Source: an uncultured Thermoplasmatales archaeon (lineage in GTDB: Archaea > Thermoplasmatota > E2 > UBA202 > DSCA01). Taken from it: a stretch of DNA of 64,000 nt. Both the position numbers and the translations under genes were made by a program. The notes below the pieces were generated by a model. The model did not search any database and was not told the origin of the DNA. It was given only the letters and a program-made list of their open reading frames with translations. Positions 25,436 to 36,964 of this stretch are shown here, piece after piece; the stretch's first letter is position 1; every line of letters begins with the position of its first letter. Location: positions 3,736 to 67,735 of the forward strand of contig CAZESS010000001.1 in assembly GCA_964514975.1 (NCBI GenBank), given 5' to 3'.

Positions 25436-26710
25436 CTAGCGGGGTTCGACGTCAATGCATACGCCAGCGGCGACTGTTGATCCCATGTCACGGATGGCGA
25501 ATCGTCCCATCTCGGGGATGTCCTTCGCCTTTTCGATGACCATAGGGCGGGTCGGCCTGACTTTGACGATGGCCGCATCGCCCGTTTTCAGGAAGTCCGG
25601 GTTTTCCTCCTTGGTTTCGCCGGTCCGGGGGTCGATTTTCCGGACGAGTTCCTCGAACTTGCAGGCGATCTGTGCCGTGTAGGCATGGAACACCGGGGTG
25701 TAGCCGACGGTGATGACCGAGGGATGGTTGAGCACCATTATCTGGGCGGTGAACGTCCGAGCGACGGTTGGCGGATTGTCGACGTGGCCGGCGACGTCGC
25801 CGCGGCGGATGTCTTTTTTGCTGACGCCGCGCATGTTGACGCCGACGTTGTCGCCGGGCTCAGCCTTGGGTATTTCCTCGTGGTGCATCTCGATGGACTT
25901 GACTTCGCCGGTGACGCCGTCTGGCTGCGTCGACGGCAGAAAGATGAGCTTGTCGCCGGGTTTCATGACGCCCGTTTCCAGTCGTCCGACGGGGACGGTG
26001 CCGACGCCCGTAATCGAGTACACATCCTGGATGGGCCACCGCAGCGGCTTGTTGATGGGTTTTTCGGCGGTGGTGAGCTGATCAAGCGCCTCGATGATGG
26101 TGGGGCCGTCCCACCAGTCGAGCTCGCCCTTTTTGGTGGCGTTGTCTCCCTTGAACGCTGACACGGGGACGAACTGGACGTCCTTGTAGCCGATGGTCTT
26201 CAGCAGCTTCTGCACTTCCTGCTGGACCTCCTTGAAGCGCTCCTGGCTGTACGGCGGGTTGGTGGCGTCCATCTTGTTGATGGCCACGATGATCTGCTTG
26301 ACGCCGAGCGTTCGGGCGAGCCAGGCGTGCTCCTTGGTCTGGGCCATGACGCCCTCTGGAGCCGCGACGACCAGGATGGCCGCGTCTGCCTGCGACGTCC
26401 CGGTAATCATGTTTTTGACGAAGTCCCTATGGCCGGGAGCGTCGATGACGGTGAAGTAGTAGTTGTCGGTGTCGAATCGCTTGTGTGCGACATCGATGGT
26501 GACACCGCGCTCTCGCTCTTCCTTCACCTTGTCCATGATCCATGCGAGCGCGAAGGATTCTTTTCCCTTTTCTTTTGCTTCCTGCTTGTATTTTTCAACG
26601 ATGTGGTCGGGGAACTGACCGGTTTCCAGCAGCAGTCGTCCTACCAGCGTTGATTTGCCGTGGTCCACATGCCCTATCGTCGCCAGGTTTATATGAGGTT
26701 TATCTGCCAT
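25436..26710 (-). CDS. tuf: Translation elongation factor EF-1alpha
   Basis: [33 protein letters not shown] and GRFAIRDMG motifs. Confidence 0.98.
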
Positions 26711-27002: not shown

Positions 27003-27932
27003 ATGACGGATGTAAAGCGGTTTTTTCTCGCGCATGCCTGGAGCATCCTCCTGGGCTACATCGGGGTGGTGACCGCCAGCTTGGCCATCGCGCACGCGGT
27101 GCTGACCGGCACGCTCGGCCTCATTTCCGTTATCGGCCTGCTGCCGCTTCCCGCCCTCTTCCTGGCGGGCTATCTGTACAGCAAAACCATCCGGCTCGAG
27201 CGGGATGCCCGGGAACAGCGGGAGGAGCTGGAGGCGGTGCGCCGGGAGCTTGAGGACTACACCTATGTGGTGTCCCACGAGCTGAAGGAACCCCTTCGCT
27301 CGCTCCGCATCTTTTCCGGTTTTTTGCTCGAGGACTACGGCGACCGGCTGGACGAGCAGGGACGGGACTACGTGCAGCGCCTCCATCGCGCCTCGGTGAG
27401 ACTAAGCAGCCTCGTCGACGACCTGCTGCTGCTGTCGCGTATCGGGCGGGCGGAGCATGCGGTTGAGCGCGTGGACATGAACGAGCTGGTCGCTGAGACC
27501 GGGGATGAGCTCGCCGCCCTGGTCGAGGAGTCGGATGCGACGGTACGGGCGCAGCCGCTTCCCGTGGTGGCCTGCCAGCGCCGGCTGATGGGCGAGATAT
27601 TCAAAAACGTCATCGCCAACGGCATCCGCTTCAACGAGGAGGAGCATCCCGTGGTCGAGGTGTCCTGTGCCGAGCGGAACGGCGCCTTTTGTTTCAGTAT
27701 CAAGGATAACGGTATCGGCATCGAGCCGGATAAGCTCGAGGACGTGTTTGACCTGTTCACCCAGCTGCATCCCCGGGAGCGATATGGCGGGGACGGCGCC
27801 GGTCTGGCCATCTGCAAGAAAATCGTCGAGGCGCACGGCGGACGGATATGGGCCGAGAGCACCCCTGGGGAGGGAACCGTGGTGTGGTTTACCATCCCGA
27901 AGCATATGGAGGCGCCGGGGGAGGTGCTGTGA
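27003..27932 (+). CDS. Membrane sensor histidine kinase (2 TM, HisKA, HATPase_c)
   Basis: VSHELKEPL H-box; N, G1 (DNGIGI), F and G2 (GAGLAI) boxes. Confidence 0.93.
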   Translation: MTDVKRFFLAHAWSILLGYIGVVTASLAIAHAVLTGTLGLISVIGLLPLPALFLAGYLYSKTIRLERDAREQREELEAVRRELEDYTYVVSHELKEPLRSLRIFSGFLLEDYGDRLDEQGRDYVQRLHRASVRLSSLVDDLLLLSRIGRAEHAVERVDMNELVAETGDELAALVEESDATVRAQPLPVVACQRRLMGEIFKNVIANGIRFNEEEHPVVEVSCAERNGAFCFSIKDNGIGIEPDKLEDVFDLFTQLHPRERYGGDGAGLAICKKIVEAHGGRIWAESTPGEGTVVWFTIPKHMEAPGEVL

Positions 27933-28639
27933 TGGAGCAGAGCGACGTGGATGCCGGTGGAAACGAGCGCACTGCGCAGGTACTCTGCATCGAGGATAAC
28001 GAGGATGATTTCGAGGCGGTGAGGCTGTCGCTTGAGCGTCATCTTGATATGCCGGTCGCCGTGGTGCATGCGCCGACGGGCCGGGAGGGCCTGCATGCGA
28101 TGCGCAGAAGGCAGGTCGACGTGGTGGTGCTTGATTATCTGCTTCCTGACATGGACGGGCTCGAGGTCATGGAGATAATGCGGCGGGAGGGCATCGACAT
28201 GCCGGTGATCATGCTGACGGGGAAGGGGGATGAGAACGTTGCGGTGAAGGCGATGAAGCGGGGTATCCATGATTATATCGTGAAGGAGGACCTGGAGACG
28301 GAGAAGCTGAGTGACAGCGTTGGCAGGGTGCTCGAGCTGACCATGTTTCTCCGGGGGCATGATGCGGTGTTGACCGAGTTTCATATACCGGGGAAGCGGC
28401 GGGGCACGCTGGTTATCCTGGCGAACATTTTGACGGCTTCGATACACGGTATCAATAAGACGACGCTGGTGCACCGCACCAACCTTAATTTTAAGACGGT
28501 TAAGAAGTATCTTTTGTTTTTGCTCGACAATGATTTTTTGTCGGTGCATCATGTTGAGGGGAAGGACATGTATAAGACGACGGAGAAGGGGCTGTTGCTG
28601 CTGCAGAAGCTCCGTGAGGTCAAGCAATATCTCGAATAG
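27932..28639 (+). CDS. Response regulator: receiver plus C-terminal archaeal winged HTH
   Basis: IEDN, LDYLLP, LTG and IVK receiver residues; KTTLVHRTNLNFKTVKKYL...YKTTEKG wHTH. Confidence 0.9.
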   Translation: MEQSDVDAGGNERTAQVLCIEDNEDDFEAVRLSLERHLDMPVAVVHAPTGREGLHAMRRRQVDVVVLDYLLPDMDGLEVMEIMRREGIDMPVIMLTGKGDENVAVKAMKRGIHDYIVKEDLETEKLSDSVGRVLELTMFLRGHDAVLTEFHIPGKRRGTLVILANILTASIHGINKTTLVHRTNLNFKTVKKYLLFLLDNDFLSVHHVEGKDMYKTTEKGLLLLQKLREVKQYLE

Positions 28640-28859: not shown

Positions 28860-29528
28860 ATGAATGGAATGAGAAAAAAACTGCTGATCGTGGGCGTGGC
28901 ACTCGTCGCCGTCTCCGCGGTCGCCGCAACACAGTACGCCAGAGCCGAACTGAGCTACACATACAACATAAACCACCCGTCAAACGGCTTCATCCGCTTC
29001 GTCGGCGGAGACAACGCAACCGACGGCATGCGCGTCCTGCGCGCCACCAACGGCAACACAACGCTGGAGCTCGACTTCGGTGAAATGACGGCCGGCGTCA
29101 ACAAGACATACACCGCCGCCTTCGCCATCGTCAACGAAGAAAACTTCAGCGTCGACATCACCGACGTTGAAGTGACGACCAGCGACACGGACTACATGCA
29201 AATCTGGCTCCACGGCGACCCCGACGCCAAAGCAGAGGACGACGCATCGAGCGTCTTTGTCTGGAACAAGGGAACCGACGTCGACGGCGCCGCCACCGCC
29301 TGGACATGCGGAGCCGGCAACAGCAACCCCGCCGACATGGACGGCACCGCTATCGCCACAGCATGGGACAGCACCGCACAGGTCCGATACACCGAGGATG
29401 ACACCGAAGCATCGAGCGGCACCGATGACTACGTCTGGGTGCAGATATCCCTCGACATCCCGTCAGGTGCCAGCACGGGCGCAAGCACCGGTACCATCAC
29501 CTTCGACTTCGAGGCATCGACCCACTAG
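28860..29528 (+). CDS. Secreted TasA/CalY-like (SipW-substrate-type) protein
   Basis: MRKKLLIVGVALVAVSAVAATQYA signal; LDFGEMTAG...FAIVN; C-terminal VQISLDIP...GTITFDFEA; lies upstream of a signal peptidase. Confidence 0.65.
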   Translation: MNGMRKKLLIVGVALVAVSAVAATQYARAELSYTYNINHPSNGFIRFVGGDNATDGMRVLRATNGNTTLELDFGEMTAGVNKTYTAAFAIVNEENFSVDITDVEVTTSDTDYMQIWLHGDPDAKAEDDASSVFVWNKGTDVDGAATAWTCGAGNSNPADMDGTAIATAWDSTAQVRYTEDDTEASSGTDDYVWVQISLDIPSGASTGASTGTITFDFEASTH

Positions 29529-29592
29529 AAGCGAGCAGACGCAACCGTCCAACCCCCTTTCCCCTCTCCCCCCCTCTTTCCCCGTACAAACC

Positions 29593-30261
29593 ATGAGAAA
29601 AAAAATCGCTGTCATCGCCGTCCTGGCAACAGTCGCCATCTCACTGGGCAGCATGCATCCGCATCTCCTGCACGCGGAGCAGCACGCGGCCAGCGAAATA
29701 CCCGGCGGATACACCGTCATATCAGGCGGCAACGTCACCGCCACCTATAACTTCAGCGTCAACGCCGGTGTGGACAGATGGGCATACCGATATCAGACAT
29801 CCGACCAGCCGCCCGGCACGAACGACACCCCCGGCATGGCGTTCAACGCATCCCAGTACGCCCGCATCGAAGCCGACGAAGACACCCGGCAGATAGACCG
29901 GGCGACAGCATGGTTCTCCCATGCTGCCCACCGGTTCGTTTTCACGATAGCCCAGAACAAAAGCACCGTCACCCTGCTCCATGTCAGCTGGAACGGCGGC
30001 GGGGTACACACCGGCTCAACCGACGGCGCCATCCTCTACCTGTGGAACCACACCGCCGGCGCATACGACCAGCTGGGCAGCACCACGCTGGACACCGAGA
30101 TAACCCTCGAAGGGACAACCTCTGCTGGCGCCAACTACATCGACACCGCCGGAAACCTGACCGCCCTCGTCGTGCAGCAGCGGCGGACATTCCTGTTCTG
30201 GTACTCATACATCGCCACCGACTACATCGAGATAGATGTCACCCACACGGGAGGTGCATGA
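29593..30261 (+). CDS. Secreted beta-rich protein (accessory subunit candidate)
   Basis: MRKKIAVIAVLATVAISLG signal; LYLWNH...YDQL...YID...DYIEIDV jelly-roll-like pattern. Confidence 0.65.
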   Translation: MRKKIAVIAVLATVAISLGSMHPHLLHAEQHAASEIPGGYTVISGGNVTATYNFSVNAGVDRWAYRYQTSDQPPGTNDTPGMAFNASQYARIEADEDTRQIDRATAWFSHAAHRFVFTIAQNKSTVTLLHVSWNGGGVHTGSTDGAILYLWNHTAGAYDQLGSTTLDTEITLEGTTSAGANYIDTAGNLTALVVQQRRTFLFWYSYIATDYIEIDVTHTGGA

Positions 30262-30262
30262 A

Positions 30263-32008
30263 ATGGAGACGAGCGCAAAAAAGATCATCGGAAACGTGCT
30301 CTTCATCGCCGTCCTGCTGCTCATCATCGGCCGGTTTCTCAGCATCGCCGCCGGCACCCCGTTCCCCCTCAGCGTCGTCTCCTCCGACTCCATGGAACCC
30401 GCCCTGTTCAAAGGCGACGTGATGCCCTGGATGCCCTGCAGCATCGACACCGTCGAACCGGGAGACGTCGTGGTCTACGCCAGCGCCCAGAGCTGGGATA
30501 ACGAAAAACACGTCGTGCATCGTGTCACCTCGGTTCGCGAGACCAATGGAGAACGGACGCTCATCACCCGTGGCGACCAGAACAACTACACCGATCAGGC
30601 CGGCCCGCACGTGCCGGAGCCGCCGATAACCGGCGGGATGCTCAAGGGCAGAGCCATCATGCTCGGTGGGCAGCCGCTAAAAATCCCGCTGGCGGGCTAC
30701 CCGTGGCTCATGCTCCACTCCGGCATAGACGCGCTCACCCGGTCCATGTCCTGGGGGCAGCCACAGCCCGGCCACCACTATGGCGTGTTCGTGCCCGCCG
30801 TCATCGCGATATCGCTCGTCGTCGCAGGTGCCGTGCTCTGGGCTCCCGGGCGTGGACGCAACATGCGGGAAACACTGCATGACTGCATCCTGGGGCCGGA
30901 GCGGCTGTCCGGACGGCGCATGTTTGCCTACATCTTCCTGTTCTATGTCGTGTTCCTCATGATAGCGGCCTCGTTTTCGTATGACCGTCTCTCCGCATCG
31001 ATGGCGGTCGACGAGGCAGCGCCGGACAGCGACCTGTCGTTCGGCACCCTGCAGGCAACGTCGTCATCGTTCCCCCGGTCCGTTTCGGTGGTCAACCCGT
31101 CGATGCTGCCCGTGCGAGGGATGGTGTTCGCCTCCGGCGACATCGCCCGTTTCCTTGAGCCGGGGGATGCAGCAACGTTTTCCTTGGACAGCGGGGAGCG
31201 GTTCTCGGGCAACATCACCGCCAGCATTCCCGCCGGAACCCCGCCGGGCGTCTACACCGGTTCCCTCATCATTTATTCGTCTCCCTACTGGTCAATTGTT
31301 CCCGCCTCGGCTGTCGACGGCCTGCGGACATGGCATCACCGGGGCGCCATCGTTGCGCTCACCCTGCTCGCAGCGGGCACGCTCGCCGTGTCCACGTTTC
31401 TCCTGCTCGCCGTGCTGTCATGGATGATGGAGAAAAGCCGCCTCGTCCGCGGCTACCTTGCATGGCGGCTGCTGCCTGTGGAGGCACGGATGCCATCCTC
31501 GCGCCTGTACACCGGGGCAGCCTTGATAGCACAGCGGCTTCGCCGTTCCCTCCGCCGGACGCTATCCTGGCTGGATACCACGACCGGCGACGACGATGCT
31601 CCGATGCGGCCCATCGCCGTATCGCTCGTCGGCCTGCTGGCGGGCGCTCCTCTGCTATACTGGCGGCATAGCATCCTGGCGGCGCTGCTCGTGGCATCCA
31701 TTGTCGGCGGGATAGCGGCCTACCTGGTGGGCTGCCGCTGGCGCTCCCAGTTTCTGTATGCGGCGCTGCTGACCACCGGATGGCTCGCCGGCATGTATGC
31801 GGCTGTTTCGATGCTGCACGTGGTCCGGGCTGGCGGCTCGCTGTTCGTCCCGCTCGCCTCGTCGATCACCACAGCCGGGGTCATGCTGCTCCTGTATGCC
31901 GCCCTGGCGGTGCCGTCCGCGCTTCTCTTCTGGCTGCCGGGCCATGTCATGCATTCGATTCGTGAAAAATGGAACCCCGTGGTATTGCTTCGGGGGTGTG
32001 ACCTATGA
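30263..32008 (+). CDS. S26 signal peptidase (SipW/Sec11 type) with long C-terminal Ig-like and multi-TM extension
   Basis: VVSSDSMEPALFKGD (catalytic Ser), VVHRV (His) and TRGDQNNYTD; about 400 further residues, mostly membrane segments. Confidence 0.88.
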   Translation: METSAKKIIGNVLFIAVLLLIIGRFLSIAAGTPFPLSVVSSDSMEPALFKGDVMPWMPCSIDTVEPGDVVVYASAQSWDNEKHVVHRVTSVRETNGERTLITRGDQNNYTDQAGPHVPEPPITGGMLKGRAIMLGGQPLKIPLAGYPWLMLHSGIDALTRSMSWGQPQPGHHYGVFVPAVIAISLVVAGAVLWAPGRGRNMRETLHDCILGPERLSGRRMFAYIFLFYVVFLMIAASFSYDRLSASMAVDEAAPDSDLSFGTLQATSSSFPRSVSVVNPSMLPVRGMVFASGDIARFLEPGDAATFSLDSGERFSGNITASIPAGTPPGVYTGSLIIYSSPYWSIVPASAVDGLRTWHHRGAIVALTLLAAGTLAVSTFLLLAVLSWMMEKSRLVRGYLAWRLLPVEARMPSSRLYTGAALIAQRLRRSLRRTLSWLDTTTGDDDAPMRPIAVSLVGLLAGAPLLYWRHSILAALLVASIVGGIAAYLVGCRWRSQFLYAALLTTGWLAGMYAAVSMLHVVRAGGSLFVPLASSITTAGVMLLLYAALAVPSALLFWLPGHVMHSIREKWNPVVLLRGCDL

Positions 32009-33222
32009 AAAAACAACTACAGCATCTATATGAAAAAATAAAGAAGACCATCTGGCCGTTCTGGGGCACCGCCGTCGAGGGCACCCCGGTCTACTACGAG
32101 GACACCGGCGACCGGATGGGCACCGTCGTCGAGGTCGTCAGAAATGCCGGAGGTGCGCCGTCAGGCTACCGGGTCCGCCATGGGGAAACCGGGACGGTGA
32201 CCATGCTTCCCGCCGACGCGTTGCAGTCCACCAAGCGGGGACTGCTGTTCACGCCCGTCTGGCACGTGGAGGCCGTATCGCTTGTCAGAGAACTCGAATA
32301 CGCGGCGCGGCATCCACGGCTCCATGACCTCGTCGACGGCGCCTCGCTGACAGACGACGAGCCGCAGGACATGGCGACATCCGACCCGGAGCTGCGGCGG
32401 AAAATCGACCATGCACGGCAGGTCAGGCGGTCGCTCGCACGTCAGCTCGAGGAACTCGAGCGGAAACGCCAGGATGTCAGGGAGCAGCTCATGGCGCTCT
32501 CGGAGCAGCGCCTGCTGCGGGACATCAGCCGCCGGGCGTTCGCCGAGGCGGTCACCGAGGCACGGCGCCGCGCCCGCATCCTGGACATCAACATTGAGCG
32601 CTGCAACGACCTGCTCGTCCGCTTCAGCGATCTCCCGTTTCTGCCCGCGGAGGCGCCACGGCAGGATGACGCTGAGCCGGAGGGGGTCATGCCGCTCAGG
32701 GAGCTCATGCACAGCATTCCCATAAACGTGGCCGTGATGGACCGGTCGGGCGTCATCCGGAGCGTCAACGAGCAGTTCACCGAAAACCTGCACTACGAGC
32801 CCGGGGAGGTAACGGGACGGCCGCTGTCCGCGCTCATGGTCGGCGACGGGCAGCATGTTGCCGAGATGTGCGATGACGGCGGCGCCAGCGACATGGAGTT
32901 CACCATCCGGGACGGCCGGGGGAAAGAGCGCTGCATGTACGGGCGGGCGATGCTGGTCTCCGACAACGGCCACGGCGAGGTCATGGCGCTTGCCTTCCAG
33001 GAGAAAATGGAGGAAAGCGACACGTTCCGGAAGATGCTTACCGACCAGATATCCCACGAGTTTTTCAACCCGCTCTGCATCGCCCAGGGTTACCTCTACC
33101 TGCTCGACGAGGGCAAATACGGCGACCTGACGCCGGAGCAGCAGCGGCAGGTCCGCTCGATCGCCAAAAACCTTAAACGGATAGAGCAGCTTGTCAAGGA
33201 GACGGTGCAAGTGAAACCGTGA
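32005..33222 (+). CDS. PRC-barrel-like, coiled coil, PAS and HisKA protein lacking HATPase
   Basis: GTPVYYEDTGDRMGTVVEV; IPINVAVMDRSG...VN PAS; ISHEFFNPLCIAQGYL; ends about 55 aa after the His. Confidence 0.8.
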   Translation: MKKQLQHLYEKIKKTIWPFWGTAVEGTPVYYEDTGDRMGTVVEVVRNAGGAPSGYRVRHGETGTVTMLPADALQSTKRGLLFTPVWHVEAVSLVRELEYAARHPRLHDLVDGASLTDDEPQDMATSDPELRRKIDHARQVRRSLARQLEELERKRQDVREQLMALSEQRLLRDISRRAFAEAVTEARRRARILDINIERCNDLLVRFSDLPFLPAEAPRQDDAEPEGVMPLRELMHSIPINVAVMDRSGVIRSVNEQFTENLHYEPGEVTGRPLSALMVGDGQHVAEMCDDGGASDMEFTIRDGRGKERCMYGRAMLVSDNGHGEVMALAFQEKMEESDTFRKMLTDQISHEFFNPLCIAQGYLYLLDEGKYGDLTPEQQRQVRSIAKNLKRIEQLVKETVQVKP

Positions 33223-33611
33223 CCACCATCCTCCTTGTGGACGACGAGCCCGACATCCACCACATCCTCGAGATAGCGCTTGAGCGGCGCAGCAGCCAGC
33301 TCCAGATGGAGCACGCCTACGACGGTGCGGCAGCCATCGAGATGTACCGGCAGCTGCAGCATGACACCCCGGATGGATGTCTCGTCCTCATGGATATAAA
33401 GATGCCGGGCATGGACGGCATCGAGGCAACCAGACGCCTCGTCGACATCGATCCGGATGCGTTTATCTACATCTTCACCGCCTACGCACATACCGATTTT
33501 GCTGACGAGGCCGTCAACGCCGGTGCCCGAGGGCTCATCCAGAAGTCGGACGACATCAGGGAGATGCTGGCGTGCATCCACGAGGCGGCCGCCCGGCTGG
33601 ATAACATTTAA
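33219..33611 (+). CDS. Stand-alone response regulator receiver
   Basis: LVDDE, LMDIKMPGMDG, FTA and IQK; GTGA overlap with the upstream gene. Confidence 0.93.
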   Translation: MTTILLVDDEPDIHHILEIALERRSSQLQMEHAYDGAAAIEMYRQLQHDTPDGCLVLMDIKMPGMDGIEATRRLVDIDPDAFIYIFTAYAHTDFADEAVNAGARGLIQKSDDIREMLACIHEAAARLDNI

Positions 33612-33637
33612 ACCTCGTTGTGTATTACGGTATTTGG

Positions 33638-36600
33638 ATGGGTGACATTCAGACCTATTTTTCGGAGATAGAGCGGCATGTTGAGCGATGCTACGGCATT
33701 GCGGAGAAGGCTCGTGCCAGGGGCTACGACCCCACCAGGGAGGTCGAGGTCCCGACGGCCAACGATTTTGCGGAACGCGTCGAGGAGCTTGTCGGGCCGG
33801 AGGGCATCGCCTCAGTTATCCGCAAACGCCTTGCGGATATGAGCCGCGAGCAGACGGCGCTGTCCGTTGCCATCGACATCGCCGAGGAACACGCGGGCAG
33901 CACCGAGCAGACGGTCGATCAGGCGGTGCGGACGGGCCTCGCCATCCTGACGGAGGGCGTCCTGGTGGCGCCTATCGAGGGCATCTCGGCGGTGAAAATC
34001 GGGAGCAACGCCGACGGCGGCAGCTACGTCGACCTCTATTTTGCCGGTCCCATCCGCTCCGCTGGCGGCACGGGCGAGGCCATGAGCGTGCTCATCGCCG
34101 ACGTGGTCCGCCGCAGGCTCGACATCGGCCGCTACCGGCCGACGGATGACGAGGTCGAGCGGTACAAGGAGGAGGTCCCCCTGTATGACCGCATCACGAC
34201 GCTGCAGTATTCCCCCTCGCTTGAGGAAATCGAGACCATCGTCCGCAACTGCCCTGTCTGCATCAACGGTGAGCCGACGGAGCAGAAAGAGGTGACGGGC
34301 AAGCGAAACCTGCCGCGGGTACACACCAACCGGGTCCGGGGCGGCGCCTGCCTGGTCATCGCCGAGGGACTGTGCCTCAAGGCGCCCAAGCTCCTGAAAC
34401 ATGTCGACAGCATGCAGCTCGAGGGATGGGACTTCCTCAATGCGTTCATACAGGACAACGGGGAGGAATCCCGCACCATCGCCCCGTCGGCGAAATACAT
34501 GAAAAGCCTCATCGCCGGCCGCCCCGTGTTTTCGCATCCCTCCAGCAAGGGTGGATTCCGCCTGCGTTACGGCCGCGGCCGGACCTGCGGACTGGCGTCA
34601 ACCGCCATCCATCCGGCGGCGATGCACATCCTCGACGACTTCGTTGCCCTGGGAACGCAGCTCAAAACCGAGCGGCCCGGCAAGGGAACCATCGGGACGA
34701 GCTGCACGTCCATCGAGGGGCCCATGGTCCTGCTCGACAGCGGCGACTTCGTTCAGCTTTACACGTCGGCGGAGGCACAGGAGGTAAAGGAGCACATCCA
34801 GGAAATCATCGACCTCGGCGAAATTTTGGTTCCCTTCGGCGAGTTCGTCGAAAACAACGCCATCCTGCCGCAGGCAAGCTACTGCCATGAATGGTGGATA
34901 CAGGAACTGGAGGAAGCCATCCAGGTCACCGACGAGGACATGGCGGCGGAGCATGTAGCCGAGCGACTTGGCCGGACGATGTCGCTTCATGAGCCATCGC
35001 CGGAGGAAGCGTTTTTCATCGCGGAGACGTTCGACGTGCCGCTCCATCCACGGCACACGCTCTTCTGGCATGACCTTTCCACTGACGACATAGCTGCGCT
35101 CGCCTATGCGCTCCAGCAGGCATCCTACAACGATGGCCGCCTCGAGATACCGAATGATGGAGAGGTCAAGGAGCTGCTCATGCAGCTGGGCGCCCTGCAC
35201 GTGGAAAACGAGACACATGACAGGCTCATATTGGACCGGTGTGCGCTTCCGCTGCTGCGCTGCTGCGGCTATAGGGTGGAGGACGGCCGGGTCAGGCAGC
35301 ATACATCGCCGGGGTCGGTCGACGCCACGGATGTGCTGGAGCTCGTATCGGCGCTCGCCGGCGTTTCCGTCAGGGCGAGAGCTCCCTCGCGCATCGGCAC
35401 CCGGATGGGCCGGCCGGAAAAAGCGGCGAAGCGAACCATGCGAGCGACGCCCCATGTGCTGTTTCCCGTCGGGCGGGCCGGCGGGCGAGAGCGACTGGTC
35501 AATGCTGCAGCGCGGGCGAACAAGATATCGTTCGAGGCGGGATCCCGGCAGTGCCAGCGCTGCGGCAACGTCACCTACAAGACCCGCTGCCAGTGCGGCG
35601 GCACCACCGTTTCCACGGGACGAATCGAGCGGCGGGAGGTCAAGCTGTACATGGAGGTCGACGAGGCCAAGGAGCGCATCGGCATGGTGCACATGCCCGA
35701 CAAGGTCAAGGGCGTCATCGGGCTGTCATCCCGGAGCAAGACCCCGGAGAGCCTGGAGAAGGGATTGCTCAGGGCGAAGCATGACATCTACGTGTTCAAG
35801 GATGGCACCGCTCGTTTCGACATGACCAACATGCCGCTCACTCACTTTAAACCGGAGGAGATCGGGACATCGGTGGAGCGACTCCGCGAGCTCGGCTACA
35901 CTCATGACTGGCGAGGGGACCCCCTCGAACGGCCTGACCAGGTCTGCGAGCTCAGGGTGCAGGATGTCATCCCGTCATGCTCGTGCGGCCGGTATCTCGC
36001 TCGGGTCGCCCGGTTCATCGACGAGCTCCTCGAACACTATTACGACATGGAGCCCTTCTACAACGTTGACGATCCCGCGGACCTTATCGGCAGCATGGTG
36101 GTCGGCATGTCTCCGCACACCTCCGCCGGGGCGGTCGGCCGCATCATCGGGTTCATCGACGCCGCCGTGTGCTGCGCCCACCCGTTCTATCATGCGGCCA
36201 AGCGCCGGAACTGCGACGGCGACGAGGACACCCTGATGCTCCTGATGGACGTGCTGGTCAATTTTTCGCTGGAATACATCCCTGAGAAGCGGGGCGGCCA
36301 CATGGACCTGCCCCTGGTGCTCGCCACCCGGATATCGCCCGCGGAGATCGACAAGGAGGCGGAAAACCTGGACGTGCTTTCCCGCTACCCGCTCCCGTTT
36401 TTCCAGGCGACGACACGTCACGCGCACCCAAAAGAGGTGGAGGAGGAGATGGATCTCGTTGCCGGTCGCATCGGCACCGGTCGGGAATACGACGGCTTCG
36501 GGTTCACCCATGACACCGGGGACATCGCCGACGGCGTCACCGTCTCGGCATACAAGACGCTGGGCAAGATGGAGGAAAAATTGTATGCGCAGCTCGCCCT

Positions 36601-36964
36601 GGCTCGAATCATCCGCGCCGTCGACGAAAGCGACGTTGCAGCCAGGGTGATACAGACACATTTCCTGCCCGACCTCATCGGCAACCTCAGGGCGTTCACC
36701 AAGCAGCAGGTCCGCTGCGTCAAATGCAACACCAAATACCGGCGCATCCCGCTCAAGGGGCGGTGCACCAACTGCGGCAAATCGCTGACGCTGACCGTCC
36801 ACGAAAAGTCAATCAAAAAATACCTGGAGCCCGCCAAGCGCATCATAGAGGACTTCGAGGTGCCCACCTACACCAGGCAGCGCCTTCTTTTGTTCGAAAA
36901 ATCCGCCGAGTCATTGTTCACCAACGACAAGGTCACGCAGACGAAGCTGCCGGGCTTCGGATAA
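33638..36964 (+). CDS. polC: DNA polymerase D large subunit (DP2)
   Basis: YFAGPIRSAGGT, GGFRLRYGR, HAAKRRNCDGDED, and C-terminal CVKC...CTNC. Confidence 0.97.
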   Translation: MGDIQTYFSEIERHVERCYGIAEKARARGYDPTREVEVPTANDFAERVEELVGPEGIASVIRKRLADMSREQTALSVAIDIAEEHAGSTEQTVDQAVRTGLAILTEGVLVAPIEGISAVKIGSNADGGSYVDLYFAGPIRSAGGTGEAMSVLIADVVRRRLDIGRYRPTDDEVERYKEEVPLYDRITTLQYSPSLEEIETIVRNCPVCINGEPTEQKEVTGKRNLPRVHTNRVRGGACLVIAEGLCLKAPKLLKHVDSMQLEGWDFLNAFIQDNGEESRTIAPSAKYMKSLIAGRPVFSHPSSKGGFRLRYGRGRTCGLASTAIHPAAMHILDDFVALGTQLKTERPGKGTIGTSCTSIEGPMVLLDSGDFVQLYTSAEAQEVKEHIQEIIDLGEILVPFGEFVENNAILPQASYCHEWWIQELEEAIQVTDEDMAAEHVAERLGRTMSLHEPSPEEAFFIAETFDVPLHPRHTLFWHDLSTDDIAALAYALQQASYNDGRLEIPNDGEVKELLMQLGALHVENETHDRLILDRCALPLLRCCGYRVEDGRVRQHTSPGSVDATDVLELVSALAGVSVRARAPSRIGTRMGRPEKAAKRTMRATPHVLFPVGRAGGRERLVNAAARANKISFEAGSRQCQRCGNVTYKTRCQCGGTTVSTGRIERREVKLYMEVDEAKERIGMVHMPDKVKGVIGLSSRSKTPESLEKGLLRAKHDIYVFKDGTARFDMTNMPLTHFKPEEIGTSVERLRELGYTHDWRGDPLERPDQVCELRVQDVIPSCSCGRYLARVARFIDELLEHYYDMEPFYNVDDPADLIGSMVVGMSPHTSAGAVGRIIGFIDAAVCCAHPFYHAAKRRNCDGDEDTLMLLMDVLVNFSLEYIPEKRGGHMDLPLVLATRISPAEIDKEAENLDVLSRYPLPFFQATTRHAHPKEVEEEMDLVAGRIGTGREYDGFGFTHDTGDIADGVTVSAYKTLGKMEEKLYAQLALARIIRAVDESDVAARVIQTHFLPDLIGNLRAFTKQQVRCVKCNTKYRRIPLKGRCTNCGKSLTLTVHEKSIKKYLEPAKRIIEDFEVPTYTRQRLLLFEKSAESLFTNDKVTQTKLPGFG

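Follow-up and report, generated by a model that had tools for sequence, protein, structure and literature searches.

A probable surface-filament operon was identified in an uncultured Thermoplasmata archaeon. It comprises genes for two secreted proteins, P0001 and P0002, for an unusually long signal peptidase and for a cytoplasmic CdvA-like protein. The operon lies within a window of 64,000 nucleotides (contig CAZESS010000001.1 of assembly GCA_964514975.1, positions 3,736-67,735, forward strand), to which all positions below refer. We consider it probable that the locus encodes a Sec-dependent, taf-like donor-strand filament served by its own TafD-type peptidase. This reading is carried by the conserved gene order, the catalytic residues of the peptidase and its homology to TafD-type enzymes, the fold of P0001 and the presence of a separate housekeeping peptidase. 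To these observations, structural modelling adds a predicted exchange of strands between copies of P0001.

A first-pass annotation of the same DNA had proposed a fibre operon of the TasA/SipW kind. The filament interpretation gained from the subunit fold, from the strand modelled in trans and from the conservation of a dedicated peptidase. Membership of the TasA family and of the SipW family was not borne out. The features of the module are as follows (aa, amino acids; ORF, open reading frame; AF2, AlphaFold2; DHp, dimerization and histidine phosphotransfer; Ig, immunoglobulin).

28860..29528, + strand: P0001, candidate major fibre subunit, 222 aa (ORF, alignment, structure model)
29593..30261, + strand: P0002, second secreted protein, 222 aa (ORF, homologues, profile comparison)
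30263..30781, + strand: peptidase part 1, membrane helix 1 and extracellular Sec11/S26B-type catalytic domain
30782..30982, + strand: peptidase part 2, membrane helices 2 and 3, basic cytoplasmic loop, conserved GPERLS (alignment, hydrophobicity, AF2)
30983..31339, + strand: peptidase part 3, extracellular seven-stranded Ig-like domain of MSP/PapD-like fold, with invariant NPS and YSSPYW
31340..32008, + strand: peptidase part 4, membrane helix 4, basic cytoplasmic segment and four-helix C-terminal tail
32005..32679, + strand: CdvA-like N-terminal module (PRC barrel and coiled coil) of a 405-aa protein
32680..33222, + strand: PAS and HisKA (DHp, H-box SHEFFNPL) part of the 405-aa protein, with no ATPase domain

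P0001 has a predicted fold resembling that of filament subunits

Both secreted proteins singled out by the first-pass annotation for a shared MRKK-hydrophobic start correspond to open reading frames. P0001, whose ATG at 28860 is preceded by GGAGG at about 8 nt, begins with MNGMRKK and P0002 with MRKK, each followed by a hydrophobic stretch. The N-terminus of P0001 is a Sec-type signal with a predicted cut after the invariant Ala23, in the motif A/TQYA (the slash marks the cut). P0001 would thus be exported and cleaved at this point by the peptidase of the operon. The mature protein starts with an amphipathic strand (residues ~29-38), a candidate donor strand on the basis of the models described below, and continues as an all-beta body.

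A search of a library of 1.84 billion proteins (E up to 0.001) yielded 114 representative clusters for the P0001 family. No family was assigned to P0001 by Pfam and NCBIfam scans, and no relevant Pfam model was matched by any of the 45 family members scanned. The family profile (A3) gave nothing significant against the sequences of the Protein Data Bank (PDB), the top matches, a nanobody and a ricin B chain, being at chance level. The fold was informative. The AF2 model of P0001 (predicted local distance difference test, pLDDT, 88.6; predicted template modelling score, pTM, 0.82) shows an N-terminal helix, corresponding to the signal, followed by an all-beta body. Its closest structures among 48,161 chains, searched with Foldseek, are filament subunits covering most of the domain. 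The Sulfolobus thread subunit 7pnb_A ranked first (E 2.9e-4, probability 1.00), AbpA fourth and TasA twelfth.

Two family assignments were considered. Membership of the TasA family was rejected: Peptidase_M73 (PF12389) was matched by 0/45 members at E up to 1, and its best match in the whole genome reached 12.2 bits (cut-off 22.5), away from this locus. With a protein language model, a lead towards a cluster of DUF1102 was obtained (184 features in common, score 0.92); the DUF1102 model itself was matched by none of the 45 members.

Many family members are longer, with 400-939 aa, and carry the P0001-like domain at the N-terminus and extra domains behind it. These C-terminal domains are a beta-propeller (SBBP), Laminin_G_3 or Kre9_KNH, giving the longer members an adhesin-like appearance. 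P0001 also contains four N-x-S/T sequons (NAT, NTT, NKT and NFS). Because the NKT sequon sits within the most conserved block, NKTYTAAFAIVNEE, its position suggests glycosylation as in other archaeal filaments.

Modelling predicts strand exchange between P0001 copies

After the invariant Ala23, the 45 aligned homologues of P0001 continue with T-Q-Y-A and then with a strictly alternating strand. Positions 29, 31, 33, 35 and 37 are hydrophobic in 71-100% of the sequences, as compared to 0-24% for positions 28, 30, 32, 34 and 36. Three copies of residues 24-222 were modelled together, using a custom alignment and three controls. The trimer obtained an interface score (ipSAE) of 0.73 (0.75, 0.73 and 0.55 in the individual runs), as compared to 0.00 for the best control. 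At least 88% of the contacts agreed between runs, and the pLDDT of the partner was at least 82. In calibration, the mark used with this tool was attained for 20 of 30 proteins whose solved structure is a one-chain pair and for 1 of 23 whose solved structure is a single chain; these counts are only a rough guide here, since the alignment was a custom one and the model had three copies. At the interface, the segment 24-40 of one copy lies along strands 68-80 and 198-220 of a second copy, and the lowest expected errors are found at Tyr33, Tyr35 and Ile37. As modelled, this interface is donor-strand complementation in trans, the outcome that the earlier filament proposal had pointed to for an oligomer model. 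On cleavage, P0001 would polymerise, each copy filling the open beta-sandwich of its successor with its own amphipathic N-terminal strand. The result may stem in part from the model's memory of solved filaments.

An alternative is that P0001 and P0002 are surface or secreted glycoproteins that need a special peptidase and do not polymerise, the strand folding back into its own sandwich. The monomer model is self-complemented, as this alternative would have it; this is no argument against exchange, because AlphaFold also self-complements the AbpA monomer, according to the available text of PMC9245690. The high-confidence placement of the strand in trans, with all controls at 0.00, and the filament subunits that head the structural matches speak against non-polymerising proteins. 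So does the homology of the peptidase to that of taf clusters, for which the available texts report filaments demonstrated experimentally (PMC11821415, PMC12337348). Overall, we regard non-polymerising glycoproteins as rather unlikely.

P0002 is a candidate end subunit

P0002 resembles P0001 in its N-terminal region only. Most of its 10 aligned homologues carry a junction of the form A-x-Q-[YH], and the sole profile match between the two families covers 20 columns (probability 63.9%, E 6.6e-5) that run from the last part of the signal through the first strand. BLASTP detected no match between the two proteins. P0002 homologues are listed in the Atlas with PF27237 (AF_1625_C) and share a conserved C-terminal domain of about 170 aa. 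A Pfam scan of P0002 with a copy of the database lacking PF27237 gave no match, and NCBIfam gave only a sub-threshold hit to NF038127 (17.6 bits, cut-off 29). The P0002 profile (A5) found nothing significant among PDB sequences, the best match being a spore filament subunit (E 0.11), and the name AF_1625 appeared in no paper found by literature search.

The homologues measure either 220-455 aa or, with large inserts, 741-823 aa. Two further ones of 670 and 683 aa belong to loci cut at a contig end. The expanded forms (L005:3531-6002, L006:3699-6014, L017:3585-6002, L018:3789-6014 and L022:787-3123) carry their inserts after the signal and ahead of the conserved C-terminal domain, and share the terminal motif ...VLxDVT[IL]xYxGG. 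From their sequences, these homologues resemble a constant module bearing variable heads of the adhesin type. Because the junction and strand are shared with P0001, the body is different and the inserts are variable, P0002 would most likely be an accessory end subunit (nucleator, tip or terminator), by analogy with what was proposed for TapA and TafC/TafF.

The long peptidase is a TafD-type enzyme with an added tail

The peptidase frame extends from 30236 to 32008 (590 aa). The ATG at 30263, giving 581 aa, is the likely start because GGAGGT is found 8 nt upstream, because it lies 1 nt past the P0002 stop and because homologues begin there. The archaeal signal peptidase I model TIGR02228 was matched with 71.6 bits (cut-off 51.85) over residues 18-121 only. 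The enlarged Ser/His S26 peptidase of the first-pass annotation is therefore real. Ser52, His95, Asp114 and Asp120 (590-aa numbering) are invariant in 15/15 and 27/27 homologues; a Ser/His pair with conserved Asp is what we take to be the Sec11-type residue set. Two extracellular domains are seen in the AF2 model, which was built from 27 sequences (pLDDT 72.4, pTM 0.47). Hydrophobicity and AF2 agree on eight membrane helices and on the second of these domains, an all-beta domain of about 115 aa between membrane helices 3 and 4. A fold search with the whole 581-aa model covered the catalytic and Ig-like domains only.

The relationship with TafD-type enzymes was tested by searching plasmids with tblastn. 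A gene of Halobaculum halophilum covers 86% of peptidase residues 10-405. It stands in a row of genes whose products are a 184-aa hypothetical protein, a signal peptidase I of 336 aa, a second hypothetical protein of 132 aa and a DUF5305 protein (Pfam E 2.1e-38). By hhalign, the profile of 27 long peptidases aligned with the 336-aa enzyme over 272 columns (probability 97.6%, E 3.8e-12), covering both extracellular domains, including the IPxGxxxGxYT hairpin. Therefore, the first ~370 residues correspond to a TafD-type peptidase and the last ~200, which extend past the end of the haloarchaeal homologue, are an addition. The P0001 family and the 184-aa neighbour of the Halobaculum gene were aligned by hhalign with a probability of 20%. 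According to the available text of PMC11821415, a TafD-type peptidase crosses the membrane with four helices and has two domains outside the cell, one catalytic and one Ig-like; genetics reported there shows that TafA processing and tafi formation need TafD. The enzyme studied here would accordingly be arranged with its catalytic domain outside, two helices, the Ig-like domain outside, a fourth helix and then a gained four-helix tail.

The tail carries the conserved motifs GCRWR, TNHSL and IHxxRE...CDL, all located in 31340..32008. A free-standing version of it (residues 396-590) was not found among proteins shorter than 324 aa by a shared-word method of limited sensitivity. An identity with DUF5305 was considered and rejected: there was no Pfam match, and the tail has four helices and almost no ectodomain, as compared to the beta-sandwich ectodomain described for DUF5305 in the available text of 10.64898/2026.01.04.697558. 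DUF5305 was absent from the peptidase and its neighbours (Pfam, E up to 1), and its best score in the whole genome was 17.2 bits (cut-off 29), on an unrelated 1348-aa frame.

Two other relationships were weighed. SipW membership is not supported, with 31.3 bits for the peptidase on the equivalog NF046067 (cut-off 190). TIGR04088, presumably the model of the SipW-cognate signal peptide, was matched by neither P0001 nor P0002 (NCBIfam, E up to 1). The first-pass annotation had also seen an echo of P0001 in the internal domain of the peptidase. This echo turned out to be weak and homology found no support: BLASTP aligned 11/37 identities with E 0.24, and profile-profile comparison aligned only the 22 columns of the IPxGxxxGxYTGxI hairpin (probability 15.6%), leaving the ELDFGEM/DLSFGTL pair unaligned. 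In distant homologues, the Ig-like domain shrinks to about 80 aa and, for this reason, both echo motifs are missing.

The gene order is conserved in related loci

A contig scan gave 31 loci, of which 25 (L003-L027) come from Thermoplasmata or unclassified archaeal genomes and encode the long peptidase, either whole or in part. As judged by tblastn and ORF tables, a P0001 homologue lies upstream of the long peptidase in 14 loci (L003-L006, L008, L013, L014, L017-L020, L022, L023 and L026). In most of these, a P0002 homologue stands between the two genes. In L019 and L020, which are Methanomassiliicoccales-like, P0002 is absent and the P0001 gene immediately precedes that of the peptidase. L025, with no P0001 homologue in 2.7 kb upstream, is the sole locus with ample upstream DNA and none; several other loci are too short upstream to judge. 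The arrangement of the operon is far beyond chance.

At the scale of the phylum, the extension (residues 252-590) was detected in 36 of 401 sampled Thermoplasmatota genomes. These belong to four family-level groups (f1, 9/11 genomes; f2, 6/14; f3, 19/54; f17, 1/1). The frames bearing it measure 502-616 aa, with the exception of a 340-aa frame in genome G367.

A CdvA-like protein is inherited with the peptidase

The peptidase gene is joined by an ATGA overlap (32005-32008) to the gene of the 405-aa protein, and the latter by a GTGA overlap (33219-33222) to that of a receiver domain, as the first-pass annotation had described. That annotation had also named the 405-aa protein a DHp-only sensor. 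Indeed, it contains HisKA and no ATPase domain, together with a PAS domain, and its N-terminal 225 aa form a CdvA-like module. A profile of 11 sequences of this module matched CdvA entries 9s9g (E 1.6e-8, query residues 35-179) and 9s9i (E 8.3e-8). A PRC barrel was found in 7/11 members and the CdvA coiled-coil domain PF18822 in 4/11.

Among the 23 loci with at least 1.2 kb of downstream DNA, 18 have the CdvA-like gene directly downstream on the same strand. L019, L020, L024 and L025 have it nearby on the opposite strand, and it is missing in L027. In L019 (1256-2350, - strand) and L020 (3265-4305, - strand), the module ends in zinc-ribbon motifs instead of PAS-HisKA. The part that travels with the peptidase is thus the CdvA-like module, not the PAS-DHp part. 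In the sampled genomes, the module is present in 39 of 401, as a single copy in the genome studied here. It was found in 35 of the 36 long-peptidase genomes, the exception being G167, where the peptidase lies at a contig end. In 33 of the 35 genomes with both, it is directly downstream of the peptidase, on one contig and in the same orientation. The module also occurs in four genomes in which no long peptidase was detected.

CdvA of Sulfolobales has a C-terminal segment that binds ESCRT-III (ESCRT, endosomal sorting complex that is required for transport) and is partnered with cdvB and cdvC. The downstream protein has the same succession of a PRC barrel and a CdvA coiled-coil hairpin. It differs by its C-terminus, with PAS-HisKA or zinc ribbons, and by its gene, which belongs to a fibre operon rather than to a cdv operon. 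A Snf7 Pfam search of the genome gave 15.9 bits; this search is uninformative because the Sulfolobus control also fell below the cut-off, showing that the model is insensitive. In the available texts of the taf and AbpX papers and of the ESCRT survey PMC11188069, no link of a CdvA-like protein to a fibre peptidase is mentioned, and "signal peptidase" occurs 0 times in the available text of the survey.

This tight association raises an alternative in which the core of the system is a membrane platform made of the long peptidase and the CdvA-like protein. A cytoplasmic scaffold would place it, for instance at a polar site or a site of division, and it would be connected to a phosphorelay. P0001 and P0002 would then be a regulated cargo, the fibre being secondary or absent. 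The near-constant pairing of the two genes, the output part of the CdvA-like protein that varies from PAS-HisKA to zinc ribbons, the lack of P0002 in L019 and L020 and of P0001 upstream in L025, and the conserved cytoplasmic motifs of the peptidase tail would all fit such a platform. However, a P0001-like gene accompanies the peptidase in the 14 loci listed above, with L025 as the sole exception having ample DNA. Moreover, P0001 is more conserved than the peptidase (72-77% versus 47-67% identity in L003-L006). The binding of the tail to the CdvA-like protein is putative, and a platform is compatible with a filament rather than exclusive of it. As the core of the system, we judge it improbable.

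A separate enzyme serves as housekeeping peptidase

The genome (66 contigs, 98.9% complete) encodes a second signal peptidase of 264 aa (L002:1216-2010, contig C15). It has the motifs SGSM...HRA...GDNN and a membrane helix at the C-terminus, and its catalytic domain bears an insertion. Its neighbours, read from translations, are dCMP deaminase-like and Orc1/Cdc6-like genes. This enzyme obtained 18 bits on TIGR02228, below the cut-off, and homologues occur in 387 of 401 sampled Thermoplasmatota genomes, with 82-87% identity within the genus. The curated model thus seems to miss the housekeeping enzyme of the phylum. That the long peptidase would be a housekeeping Sec11 with chance neighbours, as its being the sole match of the genome above the TIGR02228 cut-off (73.5 bits versus 18 in the genome-wide search) could suggest, is refuted by the near-universal 264-aa paralogue, the long form being found in 36/401 genomes, and by the conserved neighbours, so that we see practically no chance for it. 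The same observations show that the long peptidase is a dedicated enzyme.

Comparison with known systems

The nearest systems are the Tat-fimbriae (tafi) of Haloarcula hispanica and Natrinema sp. J7-2, together with the Sec-type taf-like clusters of Thermococcus, Pyrococcus and Archaeoglobus (PMC11821415, PMC12337348). As far as the available texts of these papers go, these systems share with the present locus a TafD-type peptidase, small secreted beta-sandwich subunits for which donor-strand joining is predicted, a transcriptional regulator close by and another secreted protein, which varies more. A Sec-type signal is used here, as in the non-halophilic clusters. In contrast to taf, the peptidase has an extra four-helix tail of about 200 aa, no DUF5305 (TafG) gene is found in the locus or in the genome, and a cytoplasmic CdvA-like protein is coupled to the peptidase. 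In addition, the subunits match no DUF1102 model, being closer to AbpA and threads than to TafE, and no TafF-like anchor was found. Thermoplasma(ta) occurs 0 times in the main texts of the two papers.

AbpX loci, according to the main text of the preprint 10.64898/2026.01.04.697558, encode a ten-helix dedicated signal peptidase I and fusions of signal peptidase with DUF5305, which are likened there to the eukaryotic signal peptidase complex. Here, the fused part is not DUF5305 and the helices are eight instead of ten. The string "Thermoplasmat" is not found in that main text. The first-pass annotation had assumed a dedicated peptidase for the bundling pili of Pyrobaculum; this premise failed since, in the available text of PMC9245690, no dedicated peptidase gene is found near the abp operon, unlike the situation here. 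With tapA-sipW-tasA of Bacillus subtilis, as presented in the available texts of PMC9674648 and PMC10151520, the locus has in common a major subunit and an accessory protein sharing a cognate signal and an N-terminal strand. It also has in common a dedicated archaeal-type signal peptidase and donor-strand assembly, the latter as modelled here. Overall, the locus is set apart by an unannotated subunit family, by a tail-bearing peptidase without DUF5305 and by the coupled CdvA-like/PAS-DHp protein, near which lie a histidine kinase, response regulators and a winged-helix regulator.

Genomic setting

Three further features surround the module.

27003..28639, + strand: upstream histidine kinase (HisKA and HATPase) and response regulator with HTH_45 winged helix
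28670..28720 (approximate), + strand: candidate promoter, an AT-rich, TATA-like stretch within the 220-nt gap 5' of P0001 (read from sequence)
33219..33611, + strand: stand-alone receiver domain (GTGA overlap), downstream in closer relatives only

The kinase/regulator pair is a candidate for the transcriptional control of the operon, and a receiver-HTH_45 regulator is kept upstream in L003, L005, L006 and L008. The upstream kinase and regulator, the DHp-only protein and the lone downstream receiver could be parts of a multi-step phosphorelay. From translations, the module is apparently flanked by genes for EF-1alpha (25436-26710, - strand) and the large subunit of PolD (DNA polymerase II; 33620-36964, + strand). 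Because the link with the PolD gene is retained in L003-L009, the module belongs to a chromosomal core context rather than to an island.

Possible role of the tail and significance

Donor-strand filaments (TasA, bundling pili, threads, tafi, AbpX) that are built independently of type IV machinery have, to our knowledge, been recognised in archaea only since 2022. In a donor-strand filament of the kind favoured here, the tail of the peptidase probably takes the place of DUF5305, which other taf/AbpX loci encode as a separate accessory protein. The conserved cytoplasmic motifs GPERLS, GCRWR and IHxxRE...CDL may bind the co-inherited CdvA-like protein, to which the tail would then dock. Going further, and only tentatively, the tail could be the docking site of a polymer-forming CdvA-like scaffold of the cell-division type. 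The two would make up a transmembrane platform in which the scaffold, with a PAS-DHp phosphotransfer module in this clade and zinc ribbons in others, positions or gates the assembly of fibres outside the cell. The Ig-like domain could hold the cleaved subunit in a chaperone-like manner. If true, Cdv-type scaffolds would for the first time be linked to the biogenesis of surface filaments, and a chaperone/usher-like function would be built into a signal peptidase.

The data extend the taf-type system to uncultured Thermoplasmata and show a peptidase that has absorbed extra membrane modules. The unexpected and tightly co-inherited CdvA-type cytoplasmic partner offers a handle on how fibres are coupled to the cell interior, and the locus suggests that CdvA-like proteins have a second role apart from division by ESCRT.

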